Shown here in pieces: positions 1-30,099 of a DNA stretch of 33,994 nucleotides. Numbering within the stretch: the first letter of the stretch is position 1; every line of letters begins with the position of its first letter. The translations under genes were made by a program, and so were the position numbers. This stretch comes from a virus (Duplodnaviria > Heunggongvirae > Uroviricota > Caudoviricetes). The notes under the pieces are model-generated. The model was not told where the DNA came from, ran no database searches, and was given only the letters and a program-made list of their open reading frames with translations. The DNA is taken from the IMG/VR virus record IMGVR_UViG_2585427621_000012, one strand, 5' to 3'.

Positions 1-1362
1 ATGTTTAAACCGGAACTCCTTTCCCCGGCGGGAACGCTGAAAAATATGCGTTACGCTTTCGCTTATGGCGCAGATGCTGTTTATGCGGGCCAGCCGCGTT
101 ACTCCCTGCGTGTGCGCAACAACGAATTCAACCACGAAAACCTTCAGCTCGGCATCAATGAAGCCCACGCGCTGGGGAAAAAGTTTTATGTCGTGGTCAA
201 CATTGCACCGCACAACGCCAAGCTGAAAACCTTTATCCGTGACCTGAAACCGGTGGTGGAAATGGGGCCGGATGCGCTGATTATGTCCGATCCAGGGCTG
301 ATTATGCTGGTGCGTGAGCACTTCCCTGAAATGCCGATCCATCTCTCGGTACAGGCTAACGCCGTGAACTGGGCGACGGTGAAATTCTGGCAGCAAATGG
401 GACTGACCCGCGTGATCCTCTCTCGCGAGCTGTCGCTGGAAGAGATTGAAGAGATCCGCAATCAGGTGCCGGATATGGAGATCGAGATCTTCGTTCACGG
501 CGCACTGTGCATGGCCTACTCCGGTCGCTGCCTGCTCTCTGGCTATATCAACAAGCGCGATCCGAACCAGGGTACCTGCACCAACGCCTGCCGCTGGGAG
601 TACAACGTCCAGGAAGGGAAAGAAGATGACGTTGGCAACATCGTACACAAGTACGAGCCGATTCCGGTGCAAAATGTTGAGCCGACGCTGGGTATCGGCG
701 CGCCAACCGACAAAGTGTTTATGATCGAAGAAGCCCAGCGTCCGGGCGAGTATATGACCGCGTTTGAAGATGAGCACGGCACTTACATCATGAACTCGAA
801 AGATCTGCGCGCCATCGCCCATGTAGAACGCCTGACCAAAATGGGCGTGCATTCGCTGAAAATCGAAGGCCGTACTAAATCTTTCTACTATTGCGCACGC
901 ACCGCACAGGTTTATCGTAAAGCTATCGATGATGCCGCTGCGGGCAAACCGTTCGATACCAGCCTGCTGGAAACTCTGGAAGGTCTGGCGCATCGTGGCT
1001 ATACCGAAGGTTTCCTGCGTCGTCATACTCACGACGATTATCAGAACTACGAATACGGTTATTCAGTTTCTGACCGCCAGCAGTTTGTTGGTGAGTTTAC
1101 CGGTGAGCGCAAGGGGGACCTCGCGGCGGTAGCGGTGAAAAATAAATTCTCCGTTGGCGACAGCCTTGAGCTGATGACGCCGCAAGGCAACATTAACTTT
1201 ACCCTTGAGCACATGGAAAACGCCAAAGGCGAAGCTATGCCGGTAGCACCAGGCGATGGTTATACTGTGTGGCTCCCGGTGCCGCAGGATCTTGAGCTAA
1301 ATTACGCGCTGCTGATGCGTAATTTCTCCGGGGAAACTACGCGTAACCCCCACGGTAAGTGA
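1..1362 (+). CDS. yegQ: U32-family peptidase-like protein YegQ (TrhP, tRNA hydroxylation)
   Basis: Complete 453-aa ORF from ATG at 1; sequence recognised as E. coli YegQ (MFKPELLSPAGTLKNMRYAFAYGADAVYAGQPRYSL...); host flank to the left of the prophage. Confidence 0.85.
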   Translation: MFKPELLSPAGTLKNMRYAFAYGADAVYAGQPRYSLRVRNNEFNHENLQLGINEAHALGKKFYVVVNIAPHNAKLKTFIRDLKPVVEMGPDALIMSDPGLIMLVREHFPEMPIHLSVQANAVNWATVKFWQQMGLTRVILSRELSLEEIEEIRNQVPDMEIEIFVHGALCMAYSGRCLLSGYINKRDPNQGTCTNACRWEYNVQEGKEDDVGNIVHKYEPIPVQNVEPTLGIGAPTDKVFMIEEAQRPGEYMTAFEDEHGTYIMNSKDLRAIAHVERLTKMGVHSLKIEGRTKSFYYCARTAQVYRKAIDDAAAGKPFDTSLLETLEGLAHRGYTEGFLRRHTHDDYQNYEYGYSVSDRQQFVGEFTGERKGDLAAVAVKNKFSVGDSLELMTPQGNINFTLEHMENAKGEAMPVAPGDGYTVWLPVPQDLELNYALLMRNFSGETTRNPHGK

Positions 1363-3592: not shown

Positions 3593-6040
3593 TTAACCGT
3601 CATGCATCATGCTGGCACGGGCGCGCGCACGTTTATCCCGCTCGTATTTTTCGAGCGCATCCTGTAACTGGCGGTCAAGCTGTGTCCCCGGCGCAGTACC
3701 ACCCGTCAGGCTGATGTGATATTCGTTTTTACTCTGGTCCACATAAGAGCGGCCAGCCGGTGCCGTGACCGGCTGATAAGCCTGATAGCCTGCATAAGAG
3801 CTGGTCGCCGGAATATAACCACCGGTGCCATACGTGGCGGCATGAGTTCTGGCGGCGGTCTGGTCAAGTGTGTCTGACTCTTTGTTGATAACACCGAGTT
3901 TTTCCAGTACCCAGTCAATACCACTGCGCAGTTTGTTGAACGCATTAAGCGGCAGCATCAACGCGTCAGCCAGTGCCTGCCCGAACATGACGCCCGTGTC
4001 ACGGCAACGGTTCAGGGTGTCCTGGGTGGCTTTGACCGGGGCAATCAGTTTTTTAAACCACTGCCACGCGGCCTGTAACTTTTCACCCAGCCAGTCAAAC
4101 AGCGGCTTAAGTGGCGTGAACAGTTCCCCCACCGGCGCAAATGCAGCTTTCAGCCCTTCAACCACACCGCCAAAGAATGCGCTGACAGGCTCCCAGTATT
4201 TACGGATAAGCAACGCCCCGGCGACAATTGCAGCCACCACGGCCACAACCGGCCAGCTAATCGCCCCGATGGCCGTCATAACAGCACTGCCAACCGTCGT
4301 GAAGATTGCCCCCATTGCGCCTGCTGCCGCGATGATGGCATTAATGCCGGTGATAACCGGCCAGGCTACAAGACCAATTGCACCGATGATGCCAATAAGC
4401 GCCAGTGCGCCACCGACAATAAGGCCGATGGTTGACGCCAGTGATTTGTTTTTCTGGATCCAGCCGTCGAGTTTTAACACATACTTTGTGGCCGTCTGCG
4501 TGAGATTACGCAGTGCGCCTTCCTGTTGGTCAAACAGGTCAGTCCCCACCGCCTCATAAGCGGACTGAAACTCCTTAAAGTCACCGCCGAGGTTGTCCTG
4601 CATGATATTTACCAGCTCTGCGGTCTTCCCGTCTGAGGCTTTAAACGCAGCGGTCAGTTTGTCCAGCTTTCCGGTTGAGGCGGCAGTCATCAGCACGGCG
4701 GCGGCTGAACTGGCCTCCTCCCCGAAAATGGTTTTCATGTATTCAGCCTGCTGGGCAGTACCGAGCCGGTTTTTCTCAAAACTGGCCTGCATTTCTTTCA
4801 GAATGGTAAATATTGGTCGGGTATTCCCCTTGCTGTCTGAGGTTTTCACTCCAAGCTCTTTGAGTGCATCCCATGCTTTTCCCGTCGGTGCCTGCAGGCG
4901 ACTTAACACGGCACGGCTTCCCGTCCCCGCCATTGAGCCTGTGATTTTTGCATCATGCAGCGCCCCGACCATTGCGGCGGTTTCTTCAATGCTGACACCG
5001 GCATTTTTTGCCACAGGTGCGGCATAGGTCAGCGCATCGCTCATACCGTCAAAATCGGCGGCGGTTTTGTTCATCGTCATGGAGAGAACATCCCCGATAT
5101 GAGCAACCTTATCGTTTGAAAGCTGAAAGGCAGATTTCATCCCCATCAGCAGGGCGGCGTTTTCTTCCATCGTGCGACGGTTCGCCAGCGCCATATTCAG
5201 CGTGACCGGCGTTGCCGCCTGAATGGCATCAACATCCCCACCCGCTTTCGCGATGATAATCTGTGCACCGGCCGCATCATCCGCCGAGGCGGCGGTATTG
5301 TCGCCGAGCTGGCGCGCCTGCTTGCGTAGCGCGGCCATTTCGGCGGAGTCTTTTGCCACACCGAGCACGGCCTGTAATTCTGAGTTTTTCTGCGCAAATT
5401 CATAACCGGGCATCAGCAGCTTAACACCGGCCATCGTTCCCGCCGCCGCAATCCCCACACCGGCAGCGCCCACTGAGGCCATATTTCCGGCCAGCTCCTT
5501 TCCTGCCTGATAGCGCTGTTTTACTGCGTTAAGTTTTGCCTGTTGCGCACTGACACGCGCCAGCGCGTCACGCTGCCGGTTAAGCTGTGCGGTGGTTTCA
5601 CTGATACGGTTTTTCAGCCCCAGCTCATCATGTGCAAGATTGCGGGTATTAATTCCCACAGCGGCCAGTTCCCGCTGCTGGCGTTTAACGGAATCCGTCA
5701 GGCGGTTATATTTCGCCTGTAAGTCCTCCGCCGCACGCTTTGCGGATTCCAGCACTTTCGCCTGAGCACGGGTCGGACGTTCGGTGTTTTTAAACTGTGT
5801 GGCAAGGGCTTCGGCCTCCTGCCGTGCCTTTTCAAGTGCATGACCAGTCACGGCGAGCTGTGCGCTGGTCTTGCGGAATCCCTCAATACGGGATGCCTGC
5901 CCGTTCAGCTCGCGCAGTGATTTTTGTGTTTCCCGGATATCCCCCGACAGCGACTTACTCGCTGTGCGGATGGATTTAAACGGGCGGGATGCCTGGTCAA
6001 CAGCCCTGAGCAATACCTGTAATTTTACATTGTTACTCAT
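3593..6040 (-). CDS. T: Tail tape-measure protein gpT
   Basis: 815-aa ORF, Ala/Gly-rich with coiled-coil and hydrophobic segments; P2 gpT size and position. Confidence 0.9.
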   Translation of the reverse strand: MSNNVKLQVLLRAVDQASRPFKSIRTASKSLSGDIRETQKSLRELNGQASRIEGFRKTSAQLAVTGHALEKARQEAEALATQFKNTERPTRAQAKVLESAKRAAEDLQAKYNRLTDSVKRQQRELAAVGINTRNLAHDELGLKNRISETTAQLNRQRDALARVSAQQAKLNAVKQRYQAGKELAGNMASVGAAGVGIAAAGTMAGVKLLMPGYEFAQKNSELQAVLGVAKDSAEMAALRKQARQLGDNTAASADDAAGAQIIIAKAGGDVDAIQAATPVTLNMALANRRTMEENAALLMGMKSAFQLSNDKVAHIGDVLSMTMNKTAADFDGMSDALTYAAPVAKNAGVSIEETAAMVGALHDAKITGSMAGTGSRAVLSRLQAPTGKAWDALKELGVKTSDSKGNTRPIFTILKEMQASFEKNRLGTAQQAEYMKTIFGEEASSAAAVLMTAASTGKLDKLTAAFKASDGKTAELVNIMQDNLGGDFKEFQSAYEAVGTDLFDQQEGALRNLTQTATKYVLKLDGWIQKNKSLASTIGLIVGGALALIGIIGAIGLVAWPVITGINAIIAAAGAMGAIFTTVGSAVMTAIGAISWPVVAVVAAIVAGALLIRKYWEPVSAFFGGVVEGLKAAFAPVGELFTPLKPLFDWLGEKLQAAWQWFKKLIAPVKATQDTLNRCRDTGVMFGQALADALMLPLNAFNKLRSGIDWVLEKLGVINKESDTLDQTAARTHAATYGTGGYIPATSSYAGYQAYQPVTAPAGRSYVDQSKNEYHISLTGGTAPGTQLDRQLQDALEKYERDKRARARASMMHDG

Positions 6041-7047: not shown

Positions 7048-8238
7048 TTAATTGCTGTTAACCGAGGTGACCAGATTTGCCAGGTATTTATCGGTGATAC
7101 GCTGGCGCAGGGTCAGGTTTTCAAGAGGAGGTACCGGTGTATAGTCGTAGTCGATATACAGTTTTCCGGCCTTGAGGGTTTCCGCATCGCTGGATTCTTC
7201 GCTGAACCAGCAGGTCGCATCCACGATATAGCCGTTTGTTTTCAGCTCACGGAATTTGGCATTGATGCCGTCAACGATGTCGCGAATCAGCGTTGCGGTG
7301 ATGGGCTTGTCCACCGCCCACATGTGCGCCTCAGCCATCGTGTCGGCCAGCACCTGCGCGGTGCGGGTGTAGTTTTCAAAGAGGAACAGCGGGTCATCAG
7401 AGCAGGTACGGTTACCCCAGAAGCGGAAACCGTCGCGGCGAATCAGCGTAGTGACGCCTGACTCGTTAAGCAGGTCAGCATCGGTGCCGGACTCCTGCAA
7501 ATCCCAGAATACAGATGCGCTGATGCCGTTAACACCGTTTACCCCGACGTTGGACAGCGTTTTATGCCAGCCCTGCTCCTGGTCGATTTTCGCGCGCAGA
7601 CCCAGCGCACGGGCGGTGGCATACGCGGTGGCGGTGGTGCTGCTGACCGTATCCCATGCGAGGAAATCCAGCCAGATGACCATCAGCTCACGCTGGCTGA
7701 AATTCTGGCGGTAGGCTTTCACCTCGGAAATGGTTTTACAGCCCCATGCGCTGATATACCCGAAAGCGCGCAGCTTCTGACAGACTGATGCCAGTGCAAC
7801 AGCCACCTCTTTGGTGTCCAGTCCCGGCACGCCGAGAATACGCGGTTTAACACCGGTTACCGACTCTGCCGCCAGCAGGGCTTTCAGTCCGGTATACTGA
7901 CCGTTTTCGTCAGTGGTGCCGATGATATTGGAAACGGTCTGCGCGAGTTTCGTTTCTTCGTCGTCGCCGGTGCCGTCTTCAACACGCACGACAACGGTAA
8001 CCGGTTTTGACTGGTCAGCGATGGCCTGCAACGATGCCGCCAGCGTGCCTTTTTTACCGGCCTTTGCAATTGCGCTCTGCACATTGGTAATCAGCACAGG
8101 TTTATTGAGGGGGAAGGTTTCCGCATCCGCATCGCTGGCCGTGCAGACCATGCCGACAATGGCGGTGGATACGGTGGAAATGACGCGGGTGCCGTCGTTA
8201 ATCTCCAGCACCTGCACGCCGTGATGATAATCACTCAT
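7048..8238 (-). CDS. FI: Contractile tail sheath protein gpFI
   Basis: 396-aa ORF, P2 FI size and position. Confidence 0.9.
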   Translation of the reverse strand: MSDYHHGVQVLEINDGTRVISTVSTAIVGMVCTASDADAETFPLNKPVLITNVQSAIAKAGKKGTLAASLQAIADQSKPVTVVVRVEDGTGDDEETKLAQTVSNIIGTTDENGQYTGLKALLAAESVTGVKPRILGVPGLDTKEVAVALASVCQKLRAFGYISAWGCKTISEVKAYRQNFSQRELMVIWLDFLAWDTVSSTTATAYATARALGLRAKIDQEQGWHKTLSNVGVNGVNGISASVFWDLQESGTDADLLNESGVTTLIRRDGFRFWGNRTCSDDPLFLFENYTRTAQVLADTMAEAHMWAVDKPITATLIRDIVDGINAKFRELKTNGYIVDATCWFSEESSDAETLKAGKLYIDYDYTPVPPLENLTLRQRITDKYLANLVTSVNSN

Positions 8239-8296
8239 CCGTTTAACTCCGTGGTTAATGGGTGAGTGATATTTCAGTTGTGCCGGAGATGTCAGG

Positions 8297-8890
8297 CTAT
8301 TTGTCCCGGTTGGCTAAGGGATGACACAATTTATTCTTTGTCGCTGATGAGGGGAATTTTTTATAGAGCGTGGACAGGCCAATATCAAAAATCAGCGCCA
8401 CACGTTGACGAGATTCCCCCGCAGCCAGCAACCGTCCGACCTGCTCCCACTCACTCGTGGTGAGTTTCGGTCGTCTGCCACCAATACGACCTTTGGCTCT
8501 GGCCGCTTCCAGTCCGGCGCGTGTCCGCTCGACAATGAGTTCTCGCTCCATTTCTGCCAGGGCCCCCATCACATGAAAGAAAAAGCGCCCCATCGGCGTG
8601 CTGGTATCAATAGCATCCGTCAGGCTGCGAAAATTAACGCCGCGTTCGCGCAGTTCCTCAACCAGAATGACCAGATGCCGCATACTACGCCCCAGCCTAT
8701 CCAGCTTCCAGACTACCAGAGTGTCACCTGCTGATAATGTTCTGAGCAGTTTTTTCAGTCCCGGTCGGTCGGACTTCGTGCCGCTGATTTTATCCTCAAA
8801 ATCAGCTCACATCCTGCACACTCCAGCGCATTACGCTGCAATTCCGTGTTCTGGTCATTTGTTGACACGCGTACATAGCCAATAAGCATG
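8297..8890 (-). pseudogene. Serine DNA invertase (Gin/Hin/Pin/Cin family), frameshifted as sequenced
   Basis: N-terminus MLIGYVRVSTNDQNTELQRNALECAGCE (8890 downwards) and C-terminal 128-aa ORF (...VVWKLDRLGRSMRHLV...GRIGGRRPKLT...) are in different frames; one missing base in a T-run (plus-strand A-run 8788-8791) relative to the expected ...ELIFEDKISGTK... reading. Confidence 0.7.
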
Positions 8891-8916
8891 AGCATCTCCC
8901 TGAATAAAAACCGGAG

Positions 8917-9450
8917 ATGATGCCAGTTACCCGTTATTTCTGCATTTTCATAAACGTTGGTTTGGGAGAAGGTTCGGCATTACCCGTTGGTGTGCCTGTT
9001 CCGTGGCCTTCAGCCACTCCGCCGACAGGCTGGCTGAAATGCAACGGGGCGGCTTTTTCTGCTGAAGAATACCCGGAACTGGCAAAGGTTTACCCGACAA
9101 ATAAATTGCCTGATTTACGTGGTGAGTTTATTCGTGGCTGGGATGACGGACGTGGAGTGGATAACGGAAGGGGATTATTGACGCTTCAGGACGGTGCGAT
9201 TGTCAGTCATAACCACTATTGGGGAATCTGGACTTCACGAACTAACGACCAGACTCTGGAAAGTTTTACAGGCACCACGATTTTAAAACAAATCACGCCC
9301 CTGTCTCCGGCCATTAACTTCGATAATTACCCAATTCCCAACCCGGCTATTACAGAGGGTGGTGTTGTTGCGGCAACGACTAAACCTGCAGGTGCGAATG
9401 AAACACGCCCACGAAATGTCGCTTTTAACTATATTGTGAGGGCTGCATAA
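8917..9450 (+). CDS. Alternative tail-fibre C-terminal cassette (Sv'-like), silent in this orientation
   Basis: Conserved tail-fibre C-terminal motifs (LPVGVPVPWPSATPPTGW..., LPDLRGEFIRGWDDGRGVD); no upstream constant part on this strand; the first 28 nt lie outside the invertible segment and are probably not coding. Confidence 0.6.
   Translation: MMPVTRYFCIFINVGLGEGSALPVGVPVPWPSATPPTGWLKCNGAAFSAEEYPELAKVYPTNKLPDLRGEFIRGWDDGRGVDNGRGLLTLQDGAIVSHNHYWGIWTSRTNDQTLESFTGTTILKQITPLSPAINFDNYPIPNPAITEGGVVAATTKPAGANETRPRNVAFNYIVRAA
8945..8970. repeat. Invertase crossover site, left (26 bp, hix/gix-like)
   Basis: TTTTCATAAACGTTGGTTTGGGAGAA; its reverse complement matches 10877-10902 at 20 of 26 positions, including an identical 15-bp block TTCTCCCAAACCAAC/G. 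Confidence 0.65.
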
Positions 9451-10052
9451 TGAATAACGCAGAATTAAACAGTGAATTAATTGCCACTATGGCAGGAGAA
9501 ATTACTGTTTATAACTTTGATGTCATGAGTCGGGAATATATTTCAGCTTCAACTGAATATCTTGCTATTGGTGTCGGCATTCCGGCATATTCCTGTTTAG
9601 ATGCCCCAGGCGCATACAAAGCTGGTTATGCAATCTGCCGTTCTGCAGATTTTAACTCATGGGAATATGTGCCAGACCATCGCGGTGAAATCGTCTTTAG
9701 CACCGAAACAGGAGAATCAAAAGAAATCACCGCTCCGGGTGATTACCCTGATAATACAACCACTATCGCCCCGTTAACGCCATACGATAAATGGGATGGT
9801 GAGAAATGGGTGACGGATACCGAAGCACAGCATAGCGCCGCAGTAGAAGCGGCAGAAACACAACGCCAGTCGCTGATTGATACTGCAATGGCTTCCATTA
9901 GTCTGATTCAGCTGAAATTACAGGCCGGACGGAAGCTGACGCAGGCAGAAACCAACCGACTTAACACGGTGCTGGATTACATTGACGCGGTGACGGCAAC
10001 AGATACCAGCACCGCGCCGGATGTCATCTGGCCTGAACTGCCGGAGGCGTAG
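9450..10052 (+). CDS. Tail fibre assembly protein, alternative copy (U'-like)
   Basis: 200-aa ORF with the conserved Tfa C-terminus (...LDYIDAVTATDTSTAPDVIWPELPEA); start overlaps the stop of the preceding cassette (TAATG). Confidence 0.75.
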   Translation: MNNAELNSELIATMAGEITVYNFDVMSREYISASTEYLAIGVGIPAYSCLDAPGAYKAGYAICRSADFNSWEYVPDHRGEIVFSTETGESKEITAPGDYPDNTTTIAPLTPYDKWDGEKWVTDTEAQHSAAVEAAETQRQSLIDTAMASISLIQLKLQAGRKLTQAETNRLNTVLDYIDAVTATDTSTAPDVIWPELPEA

Positions 10053-10496
10053 GCCATTCAATATCTGGCGCACTGGCGGTATCGACCAGCTCCAGTGCGT
10101 CCAGATAATCCAGCCACAAATTATATTGTGCCAGTTCCTCACCTTTCAGACGACCAATAGCGGCTTTACCGGGCCATTGCTTACTGTTCATGTATTCGTT
10201 GGCCTGGTTAATTAGTAGCTGTCTTTCTGATTCAGTAATTTCAATAAGTTCTTCATGCGTGGGTGGAGGAATATCTGCCACGCAGGCAGCCCATCATCTC
10301 CGCATGCGGAATTACTGTGACGTTCAGTCCATTAATACACTGATAATATGTTGTTCGCTTCAGCCATAAACTCACTGATAATATTTTGATTTACTTCCTT
10401 AGCGTCTGATAAATCCCATCCCTCTGATTTATATTTATCAATCATATCCACAGGGAAAAAAGCATTATGCCTTGCGCTATAAACATATTCGTTCAT
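10024..10496 (-). pseudogene. Tail fibre assembly protein for the active orientation, apparently split across frames
   Basis: N-terminal 54-codon ORF (10332-10496, MNEYVYSARHNAFFPVDMIDKYKSEGWDL...) and a GTG-initiated 85-aa ORF (10024-10281, conserved Tfa C-terminus ...LDYLDALELVDTASAPDIEWPTPP) are in different frames, separated by stops. Confidence 0.5.
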
Positions 10497-10516
10497 ATAA
10501 ATCACCCTGAATAAAA

Positions 10517-11716
10517 TTACTCACCAACAGCCCACCAACTGTAATTCATCGATACCGTGTCGCTGGTTGATGACGTTCTGTAAGCAGAATTAAAGCCGGT
10601 TAACGTTGGGCCTTCTGCAGTCATCACGAACCCTCGCCCAGCGCCTAAAGGCGCACCGCCATCACCAGAATGAGTAAGCATGGCGCAGTCCGCTTTTTTG
10701 GGGAAAGGGATGCTGAATGTAATTCTCATTGTTTGCGTCGATAATGTCGGCGTAACCGCACCACGACCATATTGCAGGATTTTACCGTTGGGTAATTTCA
10801 TCCATCCATCACCACTGGCAAAAGAGGCCATGTCCGGTATCTGATTTTCCCCTGTCCCCACATCCCGTTTTGCCGCTTCTCCCAAACCAAGGTATGCGAG
10901 AAGACCGGCAACATCCTTTCCACTCAAATGAGTCAGCGTCTCATCCAGTGGCTGCTTACCTGACAGCGCATTGTTAATGGTGGTGCTGAATTTCGGGTCA
11001 TTGTTAATGGCCGCGGCAATTTCTTTCAGTGTGTCCAGCGTGTCTGGCGCGCCGTTAATCAGAGCGGTAATAGCGGTCTGAACAAACTCAGTGGTCGCAA
11101 TCCGCGTGGTGTTATTTCCTGCGGCAGGCGTTGGCGCTTTTGGTTCTCCGGTAAATGTCGGATTATGTTTCTGCGCATACTGGGTATGAGGATCCTGTGC
11201 GGCAATGTGGTTTCTCATCTGGTCATCCACATACAGCCTTAATTCCAGGACTTTATCATCCACGTATTTACGGGTCGCCAGTACCACCGACGGGTCGATT
11301 TTCAGCGTGATGGCTTCGGTATTCGTGACAACCAGAATCATGCGGATAGTCTGGGTACGACCGCTGCCTTCCTGTAACTGCGGTTTGTACGTTTCCGGGC
11401 AGTTCGCCACCGCAATGAGTACGCCTTCATCATCATAAAGCCCAATCTCACGGATCCAGAATCCGCCCTCGTTCTCAGGGATGATTTGCTCCGCAATAAT
11501 CTGGCTCTGGTTGTTCGGGTCAACACTCAGAAGATTCAGCGGCGCGATGCGTTTCTGGTTAATAAGTTTTGTCTGTGCCGGGTCAGGTGTCGGCAAGACA
11601 CCATTTGCATCACCAACGGCCATTTGCGTCAGATTCAGCTTACTGCCGAGCATCGTCGCGTTAGCCAGCCGTGCCGCGCCCTGATTAGTCAGAATGGCGT
11701 AGTATTTCACTGTCAT
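10517..11716 (-). CDS. H: Tail fibre protein (gpH-like), active orientation
   Basis: 399-aa ORF; N-terminal about 250 aa resemble P2 gpH (...GGFWIREIGLYDDEGVLIAVAN..., ...NDPKFSTTINNALSGKQP...); C-terminal part differs and begins at the crossover site (..YLGLGEA..). Confidence 0.85.
   Translation of the reverse strand: MTVKYYAILTNQGAARLANATMLGSKLNLTQMAVGDANGVLPTPDPAQTKLINQKRIAPLNLLSVDPNNQSQIIAEQIIPENEGGFWIREIGLYDDEGVLIAVANCPETYKPQLQEGSGRTQTIRMILVVTNTEAITLKIDPSVVLATRKYVDDKVLELRLYVDDQMRNHIAAQDPHTQYAQKHNPTFTGEPKAPTPAAGNNTTRIATTEFVQTAITALINGAPDTLDTLKEIAAAINNDPKFSTTINNALSGKQPLDETLTHLSGKDVAGLLAYLGLGEAAKRDVGTGENQIPDMASFASGDGWMKLPNGKILQYGRGAVTPTLSTQTMRITFSIPFPKKADCAMLTHSGDGGAPLGAGRGFVMTAEGPTLTGFNSAYRTSSTSDTVSMNYSWWAVGE
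10877..10902. repeat. Invertase crossover site, right (26 bp), inside the tail-fibre gene
   Basis: TTCTCCCAAACCAAGGTATGCGAGAA; imperfect internal dyad (TTCTCCCAAACC / GGTATGCGAGAA) around a central AA; encodes YLGLGE at about residue 270 of H. Confidence 0.65.
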
Positions 11717-12324
11717 GCGTTTACTCTCAGGTTATCAATTAAATGAATGGCCGAGGCCGGGAAATAATCCCCTCCGACAATAATGGCCTCCGGGGTGTAG
11801 GGATAAACCGTCAGGGCGTCGCCGTGATAGCATCCCGCACCGGCAAAAATGTTGCCGGTTGTACTTAAACTGATAGCCAGTCCCGTCAGATGGCGGCTTG
11901 CAGGTTTTGCATCAGCAACGAGACGCTCCAGCTCCTGATACATTTCCTCGGTAATACCCTGCTCAAGCACGCCAACAACGATGCGGAACGTCCCCGGCTC
12001 CTCGTTGAGCTGCCACCACTCCCTCACCTCAATCAGATAGCCGAGCGGCTCCACCACACGGCGAATCGCACCAATAGTGCCCTTATGGCAGTGAATGAAA
12101 TACGCATCGCGGATAACAGCGCGTTTTGTCGCTTCCGGCCACTTATCATCCCAGCGGTCAACCGAAAATGACCACGCCAGCCACGGCAGCAGATTTGCCG
12201 GACAGGTATCCGGGTTCCACAGCTCACGAATACTGACCGGCGTTTTTTCAATTTCCGCACAGGCTCTTGCGGCGGCGACTTCAAGCGGTGATGAGCCGGT
12301 CGGCAGCAGGCGCGAATCACTCAT
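11713..12324 (-). CDS. I: Baseplate assembly protein gpI
   Basis: 203-aa ORF in the P2 gpI position, overlapping H and J. Confidence 0.8.
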   Translation of the reverse strand: MSDSRLLPTGSSPLEVAAARACAEIEKTPVSIRELWNPDTCPANLLPWLAWSFSVDRWDDKWPEATKRAVIRDAYFIHCHKGTIGAIRRVVEPLGYLIEVREWWQLNEEPGTFRIVVGVLEQGITEEMYQELERLVADAKPASRHLTGLAISLSTTGNIFAGAGCYHGDALTVYPYTPEAIIVGGDYFPASAIHLIDNLRVNA

Positions 12325-23773: not shown

Positions 23774-25744
23774 TTAAAGGTCATCAATTAAACCTAAAGG
23801 CAAACCGTCCTCACCAACCGAGCTATAATGAGCGATAATATTCGAAAGTTCACCAGTAGAAAACGAATTAGGCAAATCATTATCAACTAATATAATCTGG
23901 CACGGAACATTTTTTCTTTCTGCTTTTTGAACTGTATTCAATAGTTGTTCATAAATATTTTGATACTTCATCGGATCTGACATTCCCTCAAGGTCATCCT
24001 CGAATGCAAGAGTTTCTTTTGAATATTTTTCCTTGGTCTGTTTCCCTAAATATTTGCCAACCGTATCAAATATCAAAAGTAAAGGATGGTTAACATTATG
24101 ATCTATTGCATAATCAAGAATAGACAAAAGATACCCAATAGAAGAAATAGTTCTCAAACCTCCGGATGTTATTTTAAAATATTCTTTTTCTCTTATAACA
24201 GGAATGTAATAGCTTTCAGAGATTTTTATCCCCGTTCTGTTTTTGATATTAATACCCTTCAAATACTGACTAAATCTATCACCCAAACCTTGTAAAATGC
24301 CCTCCATGCTAGGTGCGTTTTTCTTTAACGCCTCCAAGCGTTCAGTTAATGCTTCAATATCTTTTCTCAGTACCTGATACTTTTCAAGCAGTTCCTCTTG
24401 CTGGTTTCTAACCTTCAAATCTTTTACTAACTGCTCCCTAACCTTCTCATTTTTTGAGATCTCTTTAATATAAAAATCTCTCTGAGTCAAGAATGGTGTA
24501 ATCATTGACTGGCTTTCTTCGTCAATCAATTCTCTCAACTCGTCAAGTCGTTCATCTAATTCCTTTTTATAACCTGATTCTTTTTTTAATTTAAATGACA
24601 TTTCTGAGATCATGTCATTAATATTTCGTCTACGTCGACTAAGTGAATTCAACTCTTCATTAAGATCTTTTTCTGATGAAATTTCAAATGGAAAATCAGA
24701 ATCATCTATTTTAATGTGGCTATCACAGACTGGACAGGAAAATACTTCCTTATCCAATACACCAATGCGAGAATTTGCTGTTTTAATCGCTTTGAGTTTT
24801 TCAATATCATTATCATAGTCATTTTTTAACCGCGAATATTTATCAATCTTATCCTCAAGCGCAGTAATATTTAATATGCACTCTTTGTATTTAAGCGAAA
24901 TAAAATTGTGAGCATCTTTCAATTCTGTATACTGTATGGAATCCGCTTTCATATTTTTATCGAGAGCAGACAAACCTGCAACAAGTTCTTCTAAAACAAG
25001 ATCTATCCTATTAATCTCATCATCAATTGATTCAATCGTTTCATAGTCTGTATCGCGAAGAAATTCAGATATTATCTGATACTTCCTATTTAATTCCGTT
25101 ACTAAACTACTTTTTGCAGATATTTCACCTTGGAGTCTGGCGATGCTTTCATCCAACACATTGAACATGTATTTAAAAACTTCTTTCGTAAATGCGTAGC
25201 GGGACCAATCACCCAATCGCAAGAAAGATTTACTACCAATATCATCCTGACTTACATAAACAAATTTATATATATTTCTAAAACTTAACCTGCGCATCTG
25301 TGAATGAGCTTTAGAAGGAGACACCTTAATTTCAATCTTTGGAAAATTAAGACTATCAAGTAAAAACTCCGAAAAAACACCATCAACATTTGATAATGGG
25401 CTATAATTAGGAGCGTATTTTTTCGGAAAATGTTTATGTAAATCATCAAACTTACAACGATAAACTTCTATTGCTTTTTTATGATCATAGATATCTCTTA
25501 CGATTGTGAATACAGTATCATTGATCACTACTTCAAGAGCAGCATAGTTTACTGATGTTTTTATTTCATCTGCTAAATCTATAGAGCTAGCACCTAAAAG
25601 ATAATTAATAAACTCCAGAATGCTTGACTTACCTGTGTCAGAGTCTCCGTAGATAACATTGAGACCTTTATAAAAAGTAGTGACGTAGTTTTTACGAACG
25701 CCAACAAGAATCAAACTATTGATATTGAGATATGATTTCATCAT
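23774..25744 (-). CDS. Rad50/SbcC/SMC-like ABC ATPase with coiled coil and CxxC zinc hook (candidate defence ATPase, LmuB-like)
   Basis: 656 aa; Walker A GDSDTGKSS near the N-terminus; long low-complexity charged, helical middle with CPVCD at about residue 336; C-terminal signature-like TSGG, Walker B LLLIFD, and ILVDND; AT-rich codon usage. Confidence 0.7.
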   Translation of the reverse strand: MMKSYLNINSLILVGVRKNYVTTFYKGLNVIYGDSDTGKSSILEFINYLLGASSIDLADEIKTSVNYAALEVVINDTVFTIVRDIYDHKKAIEVYRCKFDDLHKHFPKKYAPNYSPLSNVDGVFSEFLLDSLNFPKIEIKVSPSKAHSQMRRLSFRNIYKFVYVSQDDIGSKSFLRLGDWSRYAFTKEVFKYMFNVLDESIARLQGEISAKSSLVTELNRKYQIISEFLRDTDYETIESIDDEINRIDLVLEELVAGLSALDKNMKADSIQYTELKDAHNFISLKYKECILNITALEDKIDKYSRLKNDYDNDIEKLKAIKTANSRIGVLDKEVFSCPVCDSHIKIDDSDFPFEISSEKDLNEELNSLSRRRRNINDMISEMSFKLKKESGYKKELDERLDELRELIDEESQSMITPFLTQRDFYIKEISKNEKVREQLVKDLKVRNQQEELLEKYQVLRKDIEALTERLEALKKNAPSMEGILQGLGDRFSQYLKGINIKNRTGIKISESYYIPVIREKEYFKITSGGLRTISSIGYLLSILDYAIDHNVNHPLLLIFDTVGKYLGKQTKEKYSKETLAFEDDLEGMSDPMKYQNIYEQLLNTVQKAERKNVPCQIILVDNDLPNSFSTGELSNIIAHYSSVGEDGLPLGLIDDL

Positions 25745-25853
25745 TTCTCCTTGAAGACTTGATTTATAACAGAGTTTAACTTAGAGGTAGGCAATGCTTG
25801 TAGCGGTAACAATGCTTCGGATAGTCGTTTTATTTCTTTAAAATATCCATCAG

Positions 25854-26252
25854 TCAATGAGCTAGCAAATTCCTTACCTTTTTCAGATAAAAATAATTTA
25901 ACACTCTCATTATTTTTTTCTCAGCTGAGAGCAATCCCCGCAATGACATAATTTTTATAAGATATTTCACTTTGGAATTGTCGAATAAGATATCTACATT
26001 TGTTGAAAAACTCTTTATTGTATAAGTTAACTGGGACTCGACACAAGCAGGCTTTTTCCCCGAAACTGTAAGAGCATAATCAATTTTTGATGGGTTTTTT
26101 ATCAGATACATAAAAATTTGTATTTTATTAATATCTAATGATAACACTCCTTTTTTGCTATGAGATAATATAGATATAGCAATGGCAAGCATAGCAAAAT
26201 TCAAGCTATACTCTTCATCAAGAGGAATATACGGCAAGTTATTTTTCTTCAT
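25854..26252 (-). CDS. Small middle-component protein of the three-gene module; as sequenced 132 aa, possibly about 170 aa if a frameshift at an A7 run is resolved
   Basis: ORF between the hydrolase and ATPase genes; a second open frame (25741-25912, ...SVKLFLSEKGKEFASSLTDGYFKEIKRLSEALLPLQ...) continues to a TGA overlapping the ATPase ATG. Confidence 0.55.
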   Translation of the reverse strand: MKKNNLPYIPLDEEYSLNFAMLAIAISILSHSKKGVLSLDINKIQIFMYLIKNPSKIDYALTVSGKKPACVESQLTYTIKSFSTNVDILFDNSKVKYLIKIMSLRGLLSAEKKIMRVLNYFYLKKVRNLLAH

Positions 26253-27462
26253 GATTACCTCGCCGTAATTGCTCCAAAGTTTCTACGCTGGTTTCAGATG
26301 ACCAGACAATATCCCTGTCATTTTTGTTAGCCAGTTGATGCAACATTCCTTTCTTATGTATCGTTTCTAAACTTTTTATAAGAGAATCTAACGACGACTT
26401 ATCCTCTTGGGCTATTCGTCTATGAACAGCAGCAATAAATTTATCTGGGGAAATTGAATTCGCGATATATTGCTCATACTCTTCCTGGTAAATCTCCCTT
26501 ATTTTAGAATACAAATGACCAAGTAGTTTCCTATCGTAATCACTCGTAAAAATATTTCTCGCAAGCTCAGCATTATAATAATATTCCTTTGCATGCATAG
26601 CGATATCCTGATGTATATCTGCGACAATCATTTTTAAGACGAAATACTCATTATCATATTGTTTCTCATCAGAAAAACGCTCAACACATATCTTCTTGGG
26701 TGCTTCTAAATTTATCTGCTGAATAAATTGCTTTACCGCAACAAACACTGTAGACGAGCTGTTTTCGGGCTTGCAAATTGAGCTATGCCCTTCATTAACT
26801 GCAATTGAGTTATTTCGTTCACTATCCATCGGTAATGCGCTTTTTTTATCAACTATAGTGTCATGAGAACCATAAACATATCTAGTGATAGGAAGTTTTT
26901 TGCTACAATTTATCCAGCGCCTATTCAACGTATCGGTCGCTTCACTTAACAATCCAAGATCTACTAACTGAGCATTTGAAGATACCATTGAAGTTATATT
27001 CGCCAATTTAGCACCAAAGTGAGGGACTGCTAACGAAATGAATCCAATTATATTAGATTGTTCCTCATGCTCAACTTTTTTTAGAATTAGATTTTTTGAT
27101 ATTACCCCCCCCATACTATGGGCGATTATTATAATTCGAGAGTAATCACTTAGCGTTACCCTAATCTCAGTATACAATAACTCAGCTATTTCATCAGTTG
27201 GTAAATTTCTCTCTAACTTATTTTTCTTAGAGAAAATACGAGCCCATAATCCTGACGTTTTAGCATACGTTTGTGTAAATTTGGTGAAATAATTGAAACA
27301 TGCAATATCAAATACATTGCCAATGTCTTCATCTTCTGCTAATAGTTTTGGAAATGAAGTTTCTTTATTAAAGTTCCATGTTTCCAAACCACCATTTAAT
27401 CCATGTACAAATAGTATCAGGCTATCTTTTTTCTCGTGGCTTATCCATTCAACCATGCTCAT
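26239..27462 (-). CDS. Lipase-like alpha/beta-hydrolase (serine hydrolase) with C-terminal helical domain (candidate effector, LmuA-like)
   Basis: 407 aa; oxyanion-hole motif LILFVHGLNG, nucleophile elbow AHSMGG (AxSxG), downstream GSHDT (Asp) and NEGHSS (His) consistent with a Ser-Asp-His triad; about 170-aa helical C-terminus; AT-rich. Confidence 0.7.
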   Translation of the reverse strand: MSMVEWISHEKKDSLILFVHGLNGGLETWNFNKETSFPKLLAEDEDIGNVFDIACFNYFTKFTQTYAKTSGLWARIFSKKNKLERNLPTDEIAELLYTEIRVTLSDYSRIIIIAHSMGGVISKNLILKKVEHEEQSNIIGFISLAVPHFGAKLANITSMVSSNAQLVDLGLLSEATDTLNRRWINCSKKLPITRYVYGSHDTIVDKKSALPMDSERNNSIAVNEGHSSICKPENSSSTVFVAVKQFIQQINLEAPKKICVERFSDEKQYDNEYFVLKMIVADIHQDIAMHAKEYYYNAELARNIFTSDYDRKLLGHLYSKIREIYQEEYEQYIANSISPDKFIAAVHRRIAQEDKSSLDSLIKSLETIHKKGMLHQLANKNDRDIVWSSETSVETLEQLRRGNHEEK

Positions 27463-27551: not shown

Positions 27552-29834
27552 CTACCACTCACGCTGTCTGTCAAAAAAGTCGATATCGTTATCAAATTTA
27601 AAACGCTTATGCCCAAAATCCAAAACAGCTCCGCGAGCGAGAGCTTCAAGCTCCCAATAACTAGCCTGAATGTCACTTTGTGCAAGAAGAACCTTAATTT
27701 TCGGGATAGTCTTTCTCTCCTGCCTTGTCAACCGGGCGGATGGGGCAGGAAAGTAGCTTCGACCATTGAAAGGGGTAAAGCTCTGCTGTGAACGATTACT
27801 GCATTTCAGTTCATTACTCAATAAGTCTCTAAGTACCTTCATAATGCCTGGCTCGGTCCAACTTAGAATCCCTTCATCTATTAAATTTAACACCGCTGCA
27901 GCATGCTCAGTCGGTGTGGGAGCCGGTAACGAAGTATCACCACCGGTGAGTTTTCCACAGTTATTGACAGGACTCCGAGGCGCGGCGATGCCGCTTTTTA
28001 AAGTCAAAGGCTCAACGACCGGAACTTTCGGCACAATGCGCCAGTCCGTCGTTCTGGTGATATGAATATGACGCGCGCCGAGATGCGGCGCGTAAATGCC
28101 GACCACTCTCTCGACTTCTTCCTCGTACTCGTTAACGTCATCCGACGGGCTACGGGCGACCCTGACAGTCTGACAATCGCGCGGGACATTTGCCCCACCC
28201 TGCGCGCTGATATACAACGCAAAATCACCACTGTCTGCGGCAGCGCGAGCAGCCTCGACGCGTTCGTCAAACTCATCAGCAATACTGACGCCGCGAGGCA
28301 ATTTGCGTAGTTCACGGTAAGCCCCCATTGTCGGCAGTCCAACCGTTTTAAATTGCGGAATGCGCCACGTTGACGCCCATGCGGTAACAGCCGCGGCAGT
28401 ATCTTTAAGCGGCTTACCGGTATCGTTATCGAGCTGACCATCCAGTGCATAGCCGTCGATGTTTTTTGAAATGTATTTCGCGATATATCCCGCAGCACCG
28501 CCCCGGTTAAGGTGTTTTGCCTGAAAACGGTTTCGCGCAGCTCCTCTTTCGTCTCCATCCTCTTTGAGCGCGTAGCGACGCATGATTTCGATAATCTGGT
28601 TACGCTGGCGTGGATTACAAAAAAGCATCATATGCCAGTGCGGCGTTCCGTCGTGGTGTGGCTCGACGACACGCAAACCGTAGACCTGTAAATCATTATC
28701 CTTGAATGCCGTGCGCATCAGGCTCCAGATGCGGCAGAGATAACGCTGCGCATCCTTTGGATTAAATGCCTCATCGTTCCAGCCGTGATTAAGCTGAACG
28801 GTTTTACTTTCGCCTTTTCTGACCTGACGTGTCGGGTGATACTTTGACGGCGCGGTCAGCGTGATAAACATCCCCACATCACCCTCTGCGGCGGCGTAAC
28901 GCTCAATACCGGCAATGGTGTTCATCAGCTCCATCCGGCGAATTTCAGGATTAGAAATACTGCCCATCACCTTACTGATAAGGTCGATGCGCTCGCCGGT
29001 TTCCCTGTTTTCAAGGTCACACGATTTAAGAAATTCCAGATTTGCCTGGCGGCGCGCACGCACATCACGAATGGCGTGTTTACTGGCATAAGGAGAACGG
29101 TCTTTATTGACCTCCCCGACAGCTATCAGTAACGCTTCATGCCAGCGCATACGCTGGCCTTTAAGCTGATGAGTCCACCACTCATCGTTAAACAGACGGG
29201 CAATGGCAGAATATGCCTGCCTCGTGGTCATCTGCCCTTTACGGTATATTTTCCAGTAGAGAGGGGAAATATTGAAAGCACGTGCAGCGCCAGCAACATG
29301 ACCATAGAGGTGAGCCTGCGCCTCATCCGTAAACAGCGATTCTTTTTCGCCATGCGCATCCACCCAGGCATCACTGAGTTCCCCATACATCATGAAAAGC
29401 TGCGATGAGATACGGGCAGCAAACTTTTTCAGCTCCTTGTCATTCATTCCCGGCAGGCGCGCATAGTGGTCACGCTCTGCCAGAAACAGTAACGACGCGT
29501 CGGTGTTCATTTCATGGCGCTGATTCACACGCTCAATGCGCGGCCATAAACGACGCTGAAAAGTGGATGTGAGGAAATAAAACCCGTGCACCGGGCTTTT
29601 ATTGCGCCGGATGTGGTCATAGCGTGAAGTAAACAGCGAGCGCAAAAAGTAAGGCAGGCGGTTAATCGTGGATAAAACACCTTGCACCTGACGCATCTCG
29701 TCACGTGTAAGGGGTCTTTCGCGCCCGACGGCCTCGCGTGGCGCGTTCCATGCATAAGCACCGGTAAACGCCTTACCGGTGCCTGCAGCAAATGCTGACG
29801 GAGGGACAAAACGCCCGGAGGCTTTAACGGCCAT
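27552..29834 (-). CDS. A: Replication initiation protein gpA (rolling-circle nickase)
   Basis: About 760 aa, recognised as P2 gpA (...GFYFLTSTFQRRLWPRIERVN...HDGTPHWHMMLF...); start chosen at MAVKASG (ATG 29834) for the smaller overlap with the upstream ORF; the track start at 29876 is an alternative. Confidence 0.8.
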   Translation of the reverse strand: MAVKASGRFVPPSAFAAGTGKAFTGAYAWNAPREAVGRERPLTRDEMRQVQGVLSTINRLPYFLRSLFTSRYDHIRRNKSPVHGFYFLTSTFQRRLWPRIERVNQRHEMNTDASLLFLAERDHYARLPGMNDKELKKFAARISSQLFMMYGELSDAWVDAHGEKESLFTDEAQAHLYGHVAGAARAFNISPLYWKIYRKGQMTTRQAYSAIARLFNDEWWTHQLKGQRMRWHEALLIAVGEVNKDRSPYASKHAIRDVRARRQANLEFLKSCDLENRETGERIDLISKVMGSISNPEIRRMELMNTIAGIERYAAAEGDVGMFITLTAPSKYHPTRQVRKGESKTVQLNHGWNDEAFNPKDAQRYLCRIWSLMRTAFKDNDLQVYGLRVVEPHHDGTPHWHMMLFCNPRQRNQIIEIMRRYALKEDGDERGAARNRFQAKHLNRGGAAGYIAKYISKNIDGYALDGQLDNDTGKPLKDTAAAVTAWASTWRIPQFKTVGLPTMGAYRELRKLPRGVSIADEFDERVEAARAAADSGDFALYISAQGGANVPRDCQTVRVARSPSDDVNEYEEEVERVVGIYAPHLGARHIHITRTTDWRIVPKVPVVEPLTLKSGIAAPRSPVNNCGKLTGGDTSLPAPTPTEHAAAVLNLIDEGILSWTEPGIMKVLRDLLSNELKCSNRSQQSFTPFNGRSYFPAPSARLTRQERKTIPKIKVLLAQSDIQASYWELEALARGAVLDFGHKRFKFDNDIDFFDRQREW

Positions 29835-30099
29835 ATGAGCCAAAAGCCTCTGAGCAACGCTTGCTGAGTTGCTCAACCTGCGCGTTTAAATCAGCAAAAG
29901 ACTTTGCGCTTCCGGTCAGAATATCGTGATGCATCAGGCCGGAAACGAGCTGGCTTAATTTCGGGTAATAACCAACCACCGCCAGCCATTCCTGACCGGC
30001 GTTTTTACCGCTTTCCGCTCTCTTTTTCTCGTGGAGAATAAACTGAAAGCTGTCACTGGTAACGACATAACGTTCGCCAATTTCAATACGAATACTCAT
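29824..30099 (-). CDS. Hypothetical early-operon protein (P2 orf83-like position)
   Basis: 91-aa ORF tightly packed between a zinc-finger ORF and A; function unknown. Confidence 0.55.
   Translation of the reverse strand: MSIRIEIGERYVVTSDSFQFILHEKKRAESGKNAGQEWLAVVGYYPKLSQLVSGLMHHDILTGSAKSFADLNAQVEQLSKRCSEAFGSYGR

Follow-up and report, generated by a model that had tools for sequence, protein, structure and literature searches.

Tail-fibre genes are a recognised target class of programmed DNA inversions (PMC9881135), and two of the described systems are particularly close to the locus presented here, which lies in a 33,994-nt sequence of a tailed virus (IMG/VR record IMGVR_UViG_2585427621_000012, hereafter called the window) and involves the tail-fibre gene H of a P2-like prophage. 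The P segment of e14, a cryptic prophage of Escherichia coli K-12, has the gene order stfP-tfaP-[tfaE-stfE]-pinE, in which the square brackets enclose the genes lying on the opposite strand and the last gene encodes the invertase PinE. The G segment of phage Mu has the same architecture, S(constant)-Sv-U-[U'-Sv']-gin, and is bounded by 26-bp sites conforming to the same consensus as those reported below. Phage P1 has a comparable system, the C segment with its invertase Cin. Among P2-like elements themselves, phase-variable inversions have been described in two prophages of enteropathogenic E. coli (EPEC) E2348/69, one simple and the other a shufflon, with confirmation at read level and by PCR (Goldberg et al. 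2014; PMC4272514), and a survey of P2-like phages has reported that a DNA invertase and inversion of the adjacent genes are often found in the Z/fun hotspot (bioRxiv 10.1101/2024.10.15.618418).

The results of our analysis indicate that the window very probably contains a two-state invertible segment of the Pin/Gin type, namely one operated by a serine invertase that is presumably Fis-enhancer-dependent, at the H-G/FI junction of the prophage. A tail-fibre switch of this kind had been proposed from the sequence in an earlier reading (the original prediction), and its components are all present: inverted sites of the gix/pix type, an adjacent invertase of the Gin/Pin family, two fibre tips with their assembly genes and in-frame fusion of the fibre gene. 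The 3.6 kb of the window around the switch match the chromosome of E. coli O157:H7 SS17 at 100% identity, show 99.4-99.5% identity to many other O157:H7 strains, for example EC4115, and 96.5% identity to the P2-like phage pro483. Followed in the direction of late transcription (minus strand), the order is H constant part, distal site, tip A, tip-A assembly gene, then on the opposite strand the tip-B assembly gene and tip B, followed by the proximal site, the invertase gene and the sheath gene. The features are the following, in order of window coordinates.

8297..8889, minus strand: gene of a serine DNA invertase of the Pin/Gin family, outside the invertible segment and frameshifted in the window
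8805..8868, no strand assigned: candidate recombinational enhancer within the invertase gene, at its 5' end, with two Fis-like 15-mers, GTGTCAACAAATGAC and GTGCAGGATGTGAGC
8917..9450, plus strand: silent tip B (Collar, StfE/HK97 Stf-like; Pfam Collar 2.9e-15), of which 8959-9450 is the part fused to H after inversion
8945-8970: proximal (invertase-side) 26-bp crossover site, found by consensus and repeat search, with core TT at 8957-8958
9450..10052, plus strand: tip-B tail-fibre assembly gene, TfaE-like, 200 aa (Pfam Caudo_TAP 1.3e-32)
10024..10505, minus strand: tip-A tail-fibre assembly gene, split in the window into open reading frames (ORFs) of 57 and 85 aa, the EC4115 copy being intact with 147 aa
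10517..10876, minus strand: variable tip A of H, currently expressed and inside the segment (Pfam Gp53-like_C 5.4e-12, residues 307-398)
10877-10902: distal 26-bp crossover site, inside H (codons 272-280), with core AA at 10889-10890
10891..11716, minus strand: constant N-terminal part of H, residues 1-276, outside the segment (Pfam Phage_tail_fib N-terminal domain, PF12571, 1.4e-62)

The proximal crossover site reads TTTTCATAAACGTTGGTTTGGGAGAA and the distal site, in reverse complement, TTCTCGCATACCTTGGTTTGGGAGAA; the two match at 21 of their 26 positions and share the same layout, in which a 2-bp core is flanked by half-sites of 12 bp. On the plus strand their cores read TT and AA, the same dinucleotide after allowing for the inverted orientation, and because their inner half-sites are also identical the sites have in common a 15-bp block, 8957-8971 being the reverse complement of 10876-10890. 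This pair constitutes the longest inverted repeat within the region 8200-11800 (27 nt, 81%), and the 14-mer TTCTCCCAAACCAA occurs in the whole window in exactly two copies, which are inverted, against an expected number of 0.16. A consensus for Gin/Hin-type sites, TTNTCNNAAACCNNGGTTTNNGANAA, searched with up to three mismatches, matched both sites and nothing else in the window (expected 0), and the same pattern, when used on control sequences, recovered exactly the annotated boundaries of the Mu G segment and the two sites of e14. The positions, inverted orientation and shared block given in the original prediction are therefore all found in the sequence, together with the internal dyad that had been likened to those of gix, hix and cix sites.

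The distal site encodes codons 272-280 of H (LLAYLGLGE), with the core lying within Leu276, in agreement with its earlier placement at the YLGLGE codons. The proximal site falls within the ORF MMPVTRYFCIFINVGLGEGSALPVGVPVPWP..., and the cassette that was expected to start there in the opposite orientation is indeed a fibre C-terminus, tip B on the plus strand with its Collar domain. A third crossover site, as would be present in a shufflon, was not found anywhere in the window at up to three or up to four mismatches to the consensus. The locus consequently has two sites and two states, differing from systems of multiple inversion with more than two sites and more than two arrangements, such as shufflons in general, the Min system of p15B and the multi-site shufflon of the EPEC P2-like prophage, which has four variants.

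Inversion was simulated in silico by exchange at the core dinucleotides, after which H reads in frame into tip B to yield a protein of 439 aa (H'), as compared with the 399 aa of H in the orientation of the window; a constant N-terminus is thereby continued in frame by either of two C-termini. Strain TW14359, also of serotype O157:H7, has an annotated fibre coding sequence (CDS) of 1320 bp that encodes exactly the predicted 439-aa fibre and is followed by the 200-aa assembly gene, so that both consequences anticipated for the inversion, fusion of the N-terminal part of H to the alternative C-terminus and the bringing into place of the alternative assembly gene, are borne out by the simulated fusion and by the order of annotated genes. 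The length of the constant part, previously given as 270 aa, needs to be corrected to 276 residues, or 280 including the shared GLGE; this part is identical in both orientations. In the flipped TW14359 the leader starting at 8917 and the gp53-like tip form an orphan ORF, which is annotated as a CDS of 411 bp.

Both orientations, whose detectability had been proposed as a check, occur in genome assemblies. The predicted flipped junction, taken as 800 bp, was recovered from 62 complete E. coli genomes with >=80% coverage, and in at least 37 of these, TW14359 among them, the identity is 100%; 76 genomes, EC4115 among them, have the unflipped junction. The segment thus has opposite orientations in EC4115 and TW14359, although both are spinach-outbreak-associated strains of lineage I/II, and both states exist among near-identical O157:H7 genomes. 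Alignment of the window with TW14359 shows collinear flanks and a reversed interior, with blocks that overlap only at 8957-8971 and 10876-10893; the breakpoints are therefore confined to the 15-bp shared block, which is the resolution of this comparison, rather than the dinucleotide. Because the inner half-sites are identical, both 26-mers remain unchanged after the flip. The near 1:1 representation of the two states in a near-clonal lineage, the breakpoints at sites of the invertase type and the cognate invertase next to them together constitute strong evidence of site-specific inversion.

The invertase is intact in EC4115, TW14359 and pro483, where it has 197 aa, begins with MLIGYVRVSTNDQ and shows 77% identity to Mu Gin (PDB 3UJ3, E=1e-93) and 85% identity to PinE. 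In the window the Pfam domains Resolvase and HTH_7 (helix-turn-helix) were matched on the C-terminal 128 aa, and the N-terminal fragment MLIGYVRVSTNDQ..., which contains the catalytic Ser9, sits in a different frame. A small serine recombinase with the Ser9/10 nucleophile and a C-terminal helix-turn-helix is thus encoded beside the segment, the copy of the window having a 1-nt frameshift. Searches with NCBIfam produced only sub-threshold matches for the invertase and no match for the fibre or tfa proteins. The P2 homology of the window restarts at about 8313, inside the pF late promoter region upstream of the sheath gene, and the right-hand junction of the inserted module is placed at this point. 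Compared with PinE, the invertase ORF has 13 additional aa, an extension (8297-8335) that runs into the DNA homologous to the pF region of P2; given where the P2 homology restarts, the last 13 codons of this ORF are read from P2 promoter DNA. On the other side of the gene, a terminator-like hairpin followed by a T run (8909-8928, minus strand), recognised by consensus match only, lies between the proximal site and the invertase start codon and might limit read-through of the late fibre operon into the invertase gene.

Also located in the 5' part of the invertase gene is the candidate enhancer, which is proposed on the basis of homology. Its two 15-mers, of the form G-N13-C, lie at 8868-8854 and 8819-8805, span 64 bp, begin about 96 bp from the centre of the proximal site and are conserved in sequence and position in Mu gin, e14 pinE and the gene of the window. 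The enhancer of Hin has 65 bp with a Fis site at each end and is located about 100 bp from one hix site (PMC3798978), a geometry with which that of the candidate agrees. The 15-mers were picked by their positional conservation with gin and pinE; a crude score for the Fis motif over the 5' ends of the invertase genes returned many equal-scoring matches and did not single them out.

From the sites, the in-frame fusions, the family membership of the invertase and the two natural orientations with breakpoints in the shared 15-bp block, all of which are observed, the working of the switch can be outlined as follows. Dimers of the invertase would bind both 26-bp sites and be brought into synapsis at the candidate enhancer within the 5' part of the invertase gene, to which Fis would be bound; cleavage at the 2-bp core, rotation and religation, a strand-exchange chemistry which we infer, would then flip about 1.9 kb. 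The 276 N-terminal residues of H would thereby be joined to either of two tips. State A would produce the 399-aa H with the gp53-like tip, followed by the 147-aa assembly protein, and state B the 439-aa H' with the Collar/StfE-like tip, followed by the 200-aa TfaE-like assembly protein, so that virions would carry one of two receptor specificities. The domains of the two tips, Gp53-like_C and Collar, are unrelated, which fits different receptors without proving it.

Each of the two cassettes carries a Caudo_TAP gene after its tip, one per strand, and each alternative C-terminus is therefore accompanied by its own assembly gene, that of cassette A being disrupted in the window and intact in EC4115 and pro483. 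Tip A is 99% identical to pro483 and Citrobacter phage Omnitron, and the assembly protein that follows it has 53% aa identity to TfaP of e14. For cassette B the corresponding values are 59% aa identity between tip B and StfE and 86% between its assembly protein and TfaE. The silent cassette, comprising tip B and its assembly gene (8949-10104), is also about 94% identical at the nucleotide level to stf/tfa of the siphovirus HK97, with HK106 being similar, and illustrates how phages of unrelated families exchange tail-fibre modules. The convergent assembly genes have their last 29 bp in common (10024-10052), as do tfaP and tfaE of e14, and both strands encode a similar C-terminal peptide, APDIEWPTPP versus APDVIWPELP. 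The switch further affects automated annotation: in SS17 and EC4115 the RefSeq pipeline PGAP splits the continuous 399-aa ORF of H (10517-11716) into a 411-bp 'gp53-like domain-containing protein' and an 'incomplete' N-terminal pseudogene, an artefact due to the switch; the flipped 439-aa form of TW14359 is annotated as one intact gene.

The similarity with the e14 P segment extends from gene order to the crossover sites themselves. The proximal site, in reverse complement, is identical at 26 of 26 positions to the site at 3606-3631 of the e14 sequence used for comparison, and the distal site at 23 of 26 to the other e14 site, so that the recognisable site similarity on which the original prediction depended holds on alignment with e14 as well as between the two sites of the window. 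The crossover block TTGGTTTGGGAGAAG(G) is identical in e14, the 16-mer TTGGTTTGGGAGAAGG is the repeat reported as the inversion site of the e14 P segment (PMC12529663) and the DNA of tfaE, stfE and pin is 83-88% identical. The differences concern what surrounds this module: e14 is a defective lambdoid remnant, whereas the element studied here is an apparently complete P2-like myovirus prophage; the constant part is here the N-terminus of a P2 H-type fibre (PF12571), unlike that of e14; the gp53-like tip of cassette A is unrelated to the tip of StfP; and the segment measures about 1.90 kb in EC4115 and 1.93 kb in the window, as compared with 1.80 kb in e14. The locus is thus essentially an e14/Pin module grafted onto a fibre gene of the P2 type. 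Mu has its candidate enhancer at the same place in the invertase gene, but its cassettes differ, its G segment is longer (about 3 kb) and its core is TC/GA instead of TT/AA.

Canonical P2 has the order H (669 aa)-G-terminator-fun(Z)-pF-FI and, as had been stated in the original prediction, lacks such a switch, having no invertase; the slot of fun(Z) is occupied here by the invertase and its segment. The EPEC prophages, pro483 and a P2-like phage of O157:H43 T22 belong to the same phage family and have the same genomic position, and pro483 has the same sites and the same module, annotated as 'DNA invertase'. No published account of this particular O157:H7 locus turned up in literature searches. 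We therefore consider it a new, or at least not explicitly described, case of a well-known type of switch, inversion in P2-like prophages having already been documented.

Several points weigh against a functional Fis-dependent switch of host range in this prophage. The dependence on Fis is proposed by analogy, the two candidate 15-mers are spaced by 49 bp as against the 48 bp of the Fis sites of Hin, and their exact Fis cores are uncertain. The change in host range likewise would follow by analogy with known switches, and the counts of orientations reflect one consensus orientation per assembly, not read-level switching within one culture. Moreover, the invertase of the window is frameshifted and its cassette-A assembly gene interrupted; should these lesions be genuine, SS17 would have a locked switch, unless an invertase encoded elsewhere acts in trans. 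The latter point leads to the reading that SS17 contains a fossil switch, with intact sites but with an invertase that is genuinely a pseudogene and real damage to the expressed-side assembly gene, so that the segment would be frozen and the fibre non-functional. In its favour, SS17 differs from EC4115 by 1-nt deletions at 8271 and 8797 and by a 1-nt gap at 10277, the deletion at 8797 (T5 to T4) frameshifting the invertase after codon 32, and at 10300-10358 an aberrant patch, about 55 bp long, takes the place of about 24 bp and interrupts the tip-A assembly gene; in RefSeq the two genes are annotated as frameshifted or partial, the invertase as 'frameshifted'. Yet these lesions are confined to the assembly of SS17 and absent in EC4115, TW14359 and pro483, and each of the other strains listed has an intact invertase at 99.8% identity, which corresponds to one indel. 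The deletions lie in homopolymer runs, and the genome of SS17 was assembled, in part with the guidance of a reference, from Ion Torrent PGM reads of 165 nt. Ion Torrent sequencing is prone to indels in homopolymers. For these reasons the lesions are most likely errors of sequencing or assembly, and the patch at 10300-10358 may be chimeric, derived in part from a paralogous tfa gene. Besides, action in trans could come from two more invertase-like loci of SS17, and such action within the Pin family is documented for e14, on the segment of which a different Pin, PinQ, is reported to act (PMC12529663). On balance, a fossil switch in SS17 appears unlikely, though it deserves to be taken seriously.

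A quite different role would be that the host has co-opted the segment, one orientation yielding an orphan chimeric fibre fragment, formed by the 8917 leader and the gp53-like tip, that blocks the adsorption of other phages, in which case diversification of the prophage's own host range would not be the main function; flipping could then be driven in trans by other Pin paralogues, as was reported in 2025 for PinQ on e14. There is a precedent in e14, where StfE2 arises through inversion by PinQ and is reported to prevent T2 from adsorbing (PMC12529663); the sites and cassette B share homology with the P segment of e14, and the orphan ORF of the flipped state exists as the 411-bp CDS of TW14359. 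The support for this reading is one of shared architecture, however: the gp53-like tip showed no similarity to StfP of e14 (no match at E<1e-3), and an ordinary phage role suffices for a prophage that looks complete. We regard co-option as improbable. Still less credible, to the point of being nearly negligible, is RecA-dependent homologous recombination between short inverted repeats that would simply reflect the conserved coding motif LGLGE, without site specificity. The repeat does encode a motif common to otherwise unrelated fibre cassettes (NLGLGE in StfP, NVGLGE in StfE and NLGLQE in S of Mu), but just 15 bp are identical, well under the need of efficient RecA recombination, and the full 26-bp dyad extends beyond the coding motif. 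The sites also adjoin a cognate invertase and a conserved candidate enhancer region, and the near 1:1 ratio of orientations in near-clonal strains implies frequent switching. Chance similarity of the sites, as well as RecA-mediated inversion, was accordingly rejected on the statistics of the sites, their 26-bp dyad layout and the frequencies of the two orientations.

Regarding the setting of this two-state Pin/Gin-type segment, the flanking genes are all on the minus strand and correspond to the late tail genes of P2, with tape measure, E/E', tube and sheath on one side and I, J, W and V on the other; gpD, gpA and the integrase gene lie farther from the switch. These surroundings identify the host element as a P2-like (Peduovirus) prophage of E. 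coli O157:H7 SS17, which looks complete since genes for tail, baseplate, replication and integrase are all present. At the left edge of the window (1-1362, plus strand) there is a gene for a U32-family peptidase, presumably of the host chromosome flanking the prophage end. An anti-phage operon of the Lamassu type, with three genes on the minus strand (23774-27462), adjoins the replication gene A (27552-29876), a position that is a typical cargo site of P2-like phages. Its genes are the following.

26239-27462, minus strand: LmuA, alpha/beta-hydrolase with ABC-3C CTD8
25854-26252, minus strand: LmuC, ABC-3C MC4
23774-25744, minus strand: LmuB, SMC-like ATPase (PADLOC LmuB, E=1.5e-235)

Invertase-driven switching of tail fibres is long established in Mu, P1, e14 and P2-like prophages, and the present locus introduces no new principle in this respect. 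It does explain the 1.9-kb inversion differences among closely related O157:H7 assemblies in this prophage, as well as the splitting or truncation of the fibre gene by automated annotation. For outbreak genomics, structural differences between isolates at this locus represent phase variation, not phylogenetic signal.

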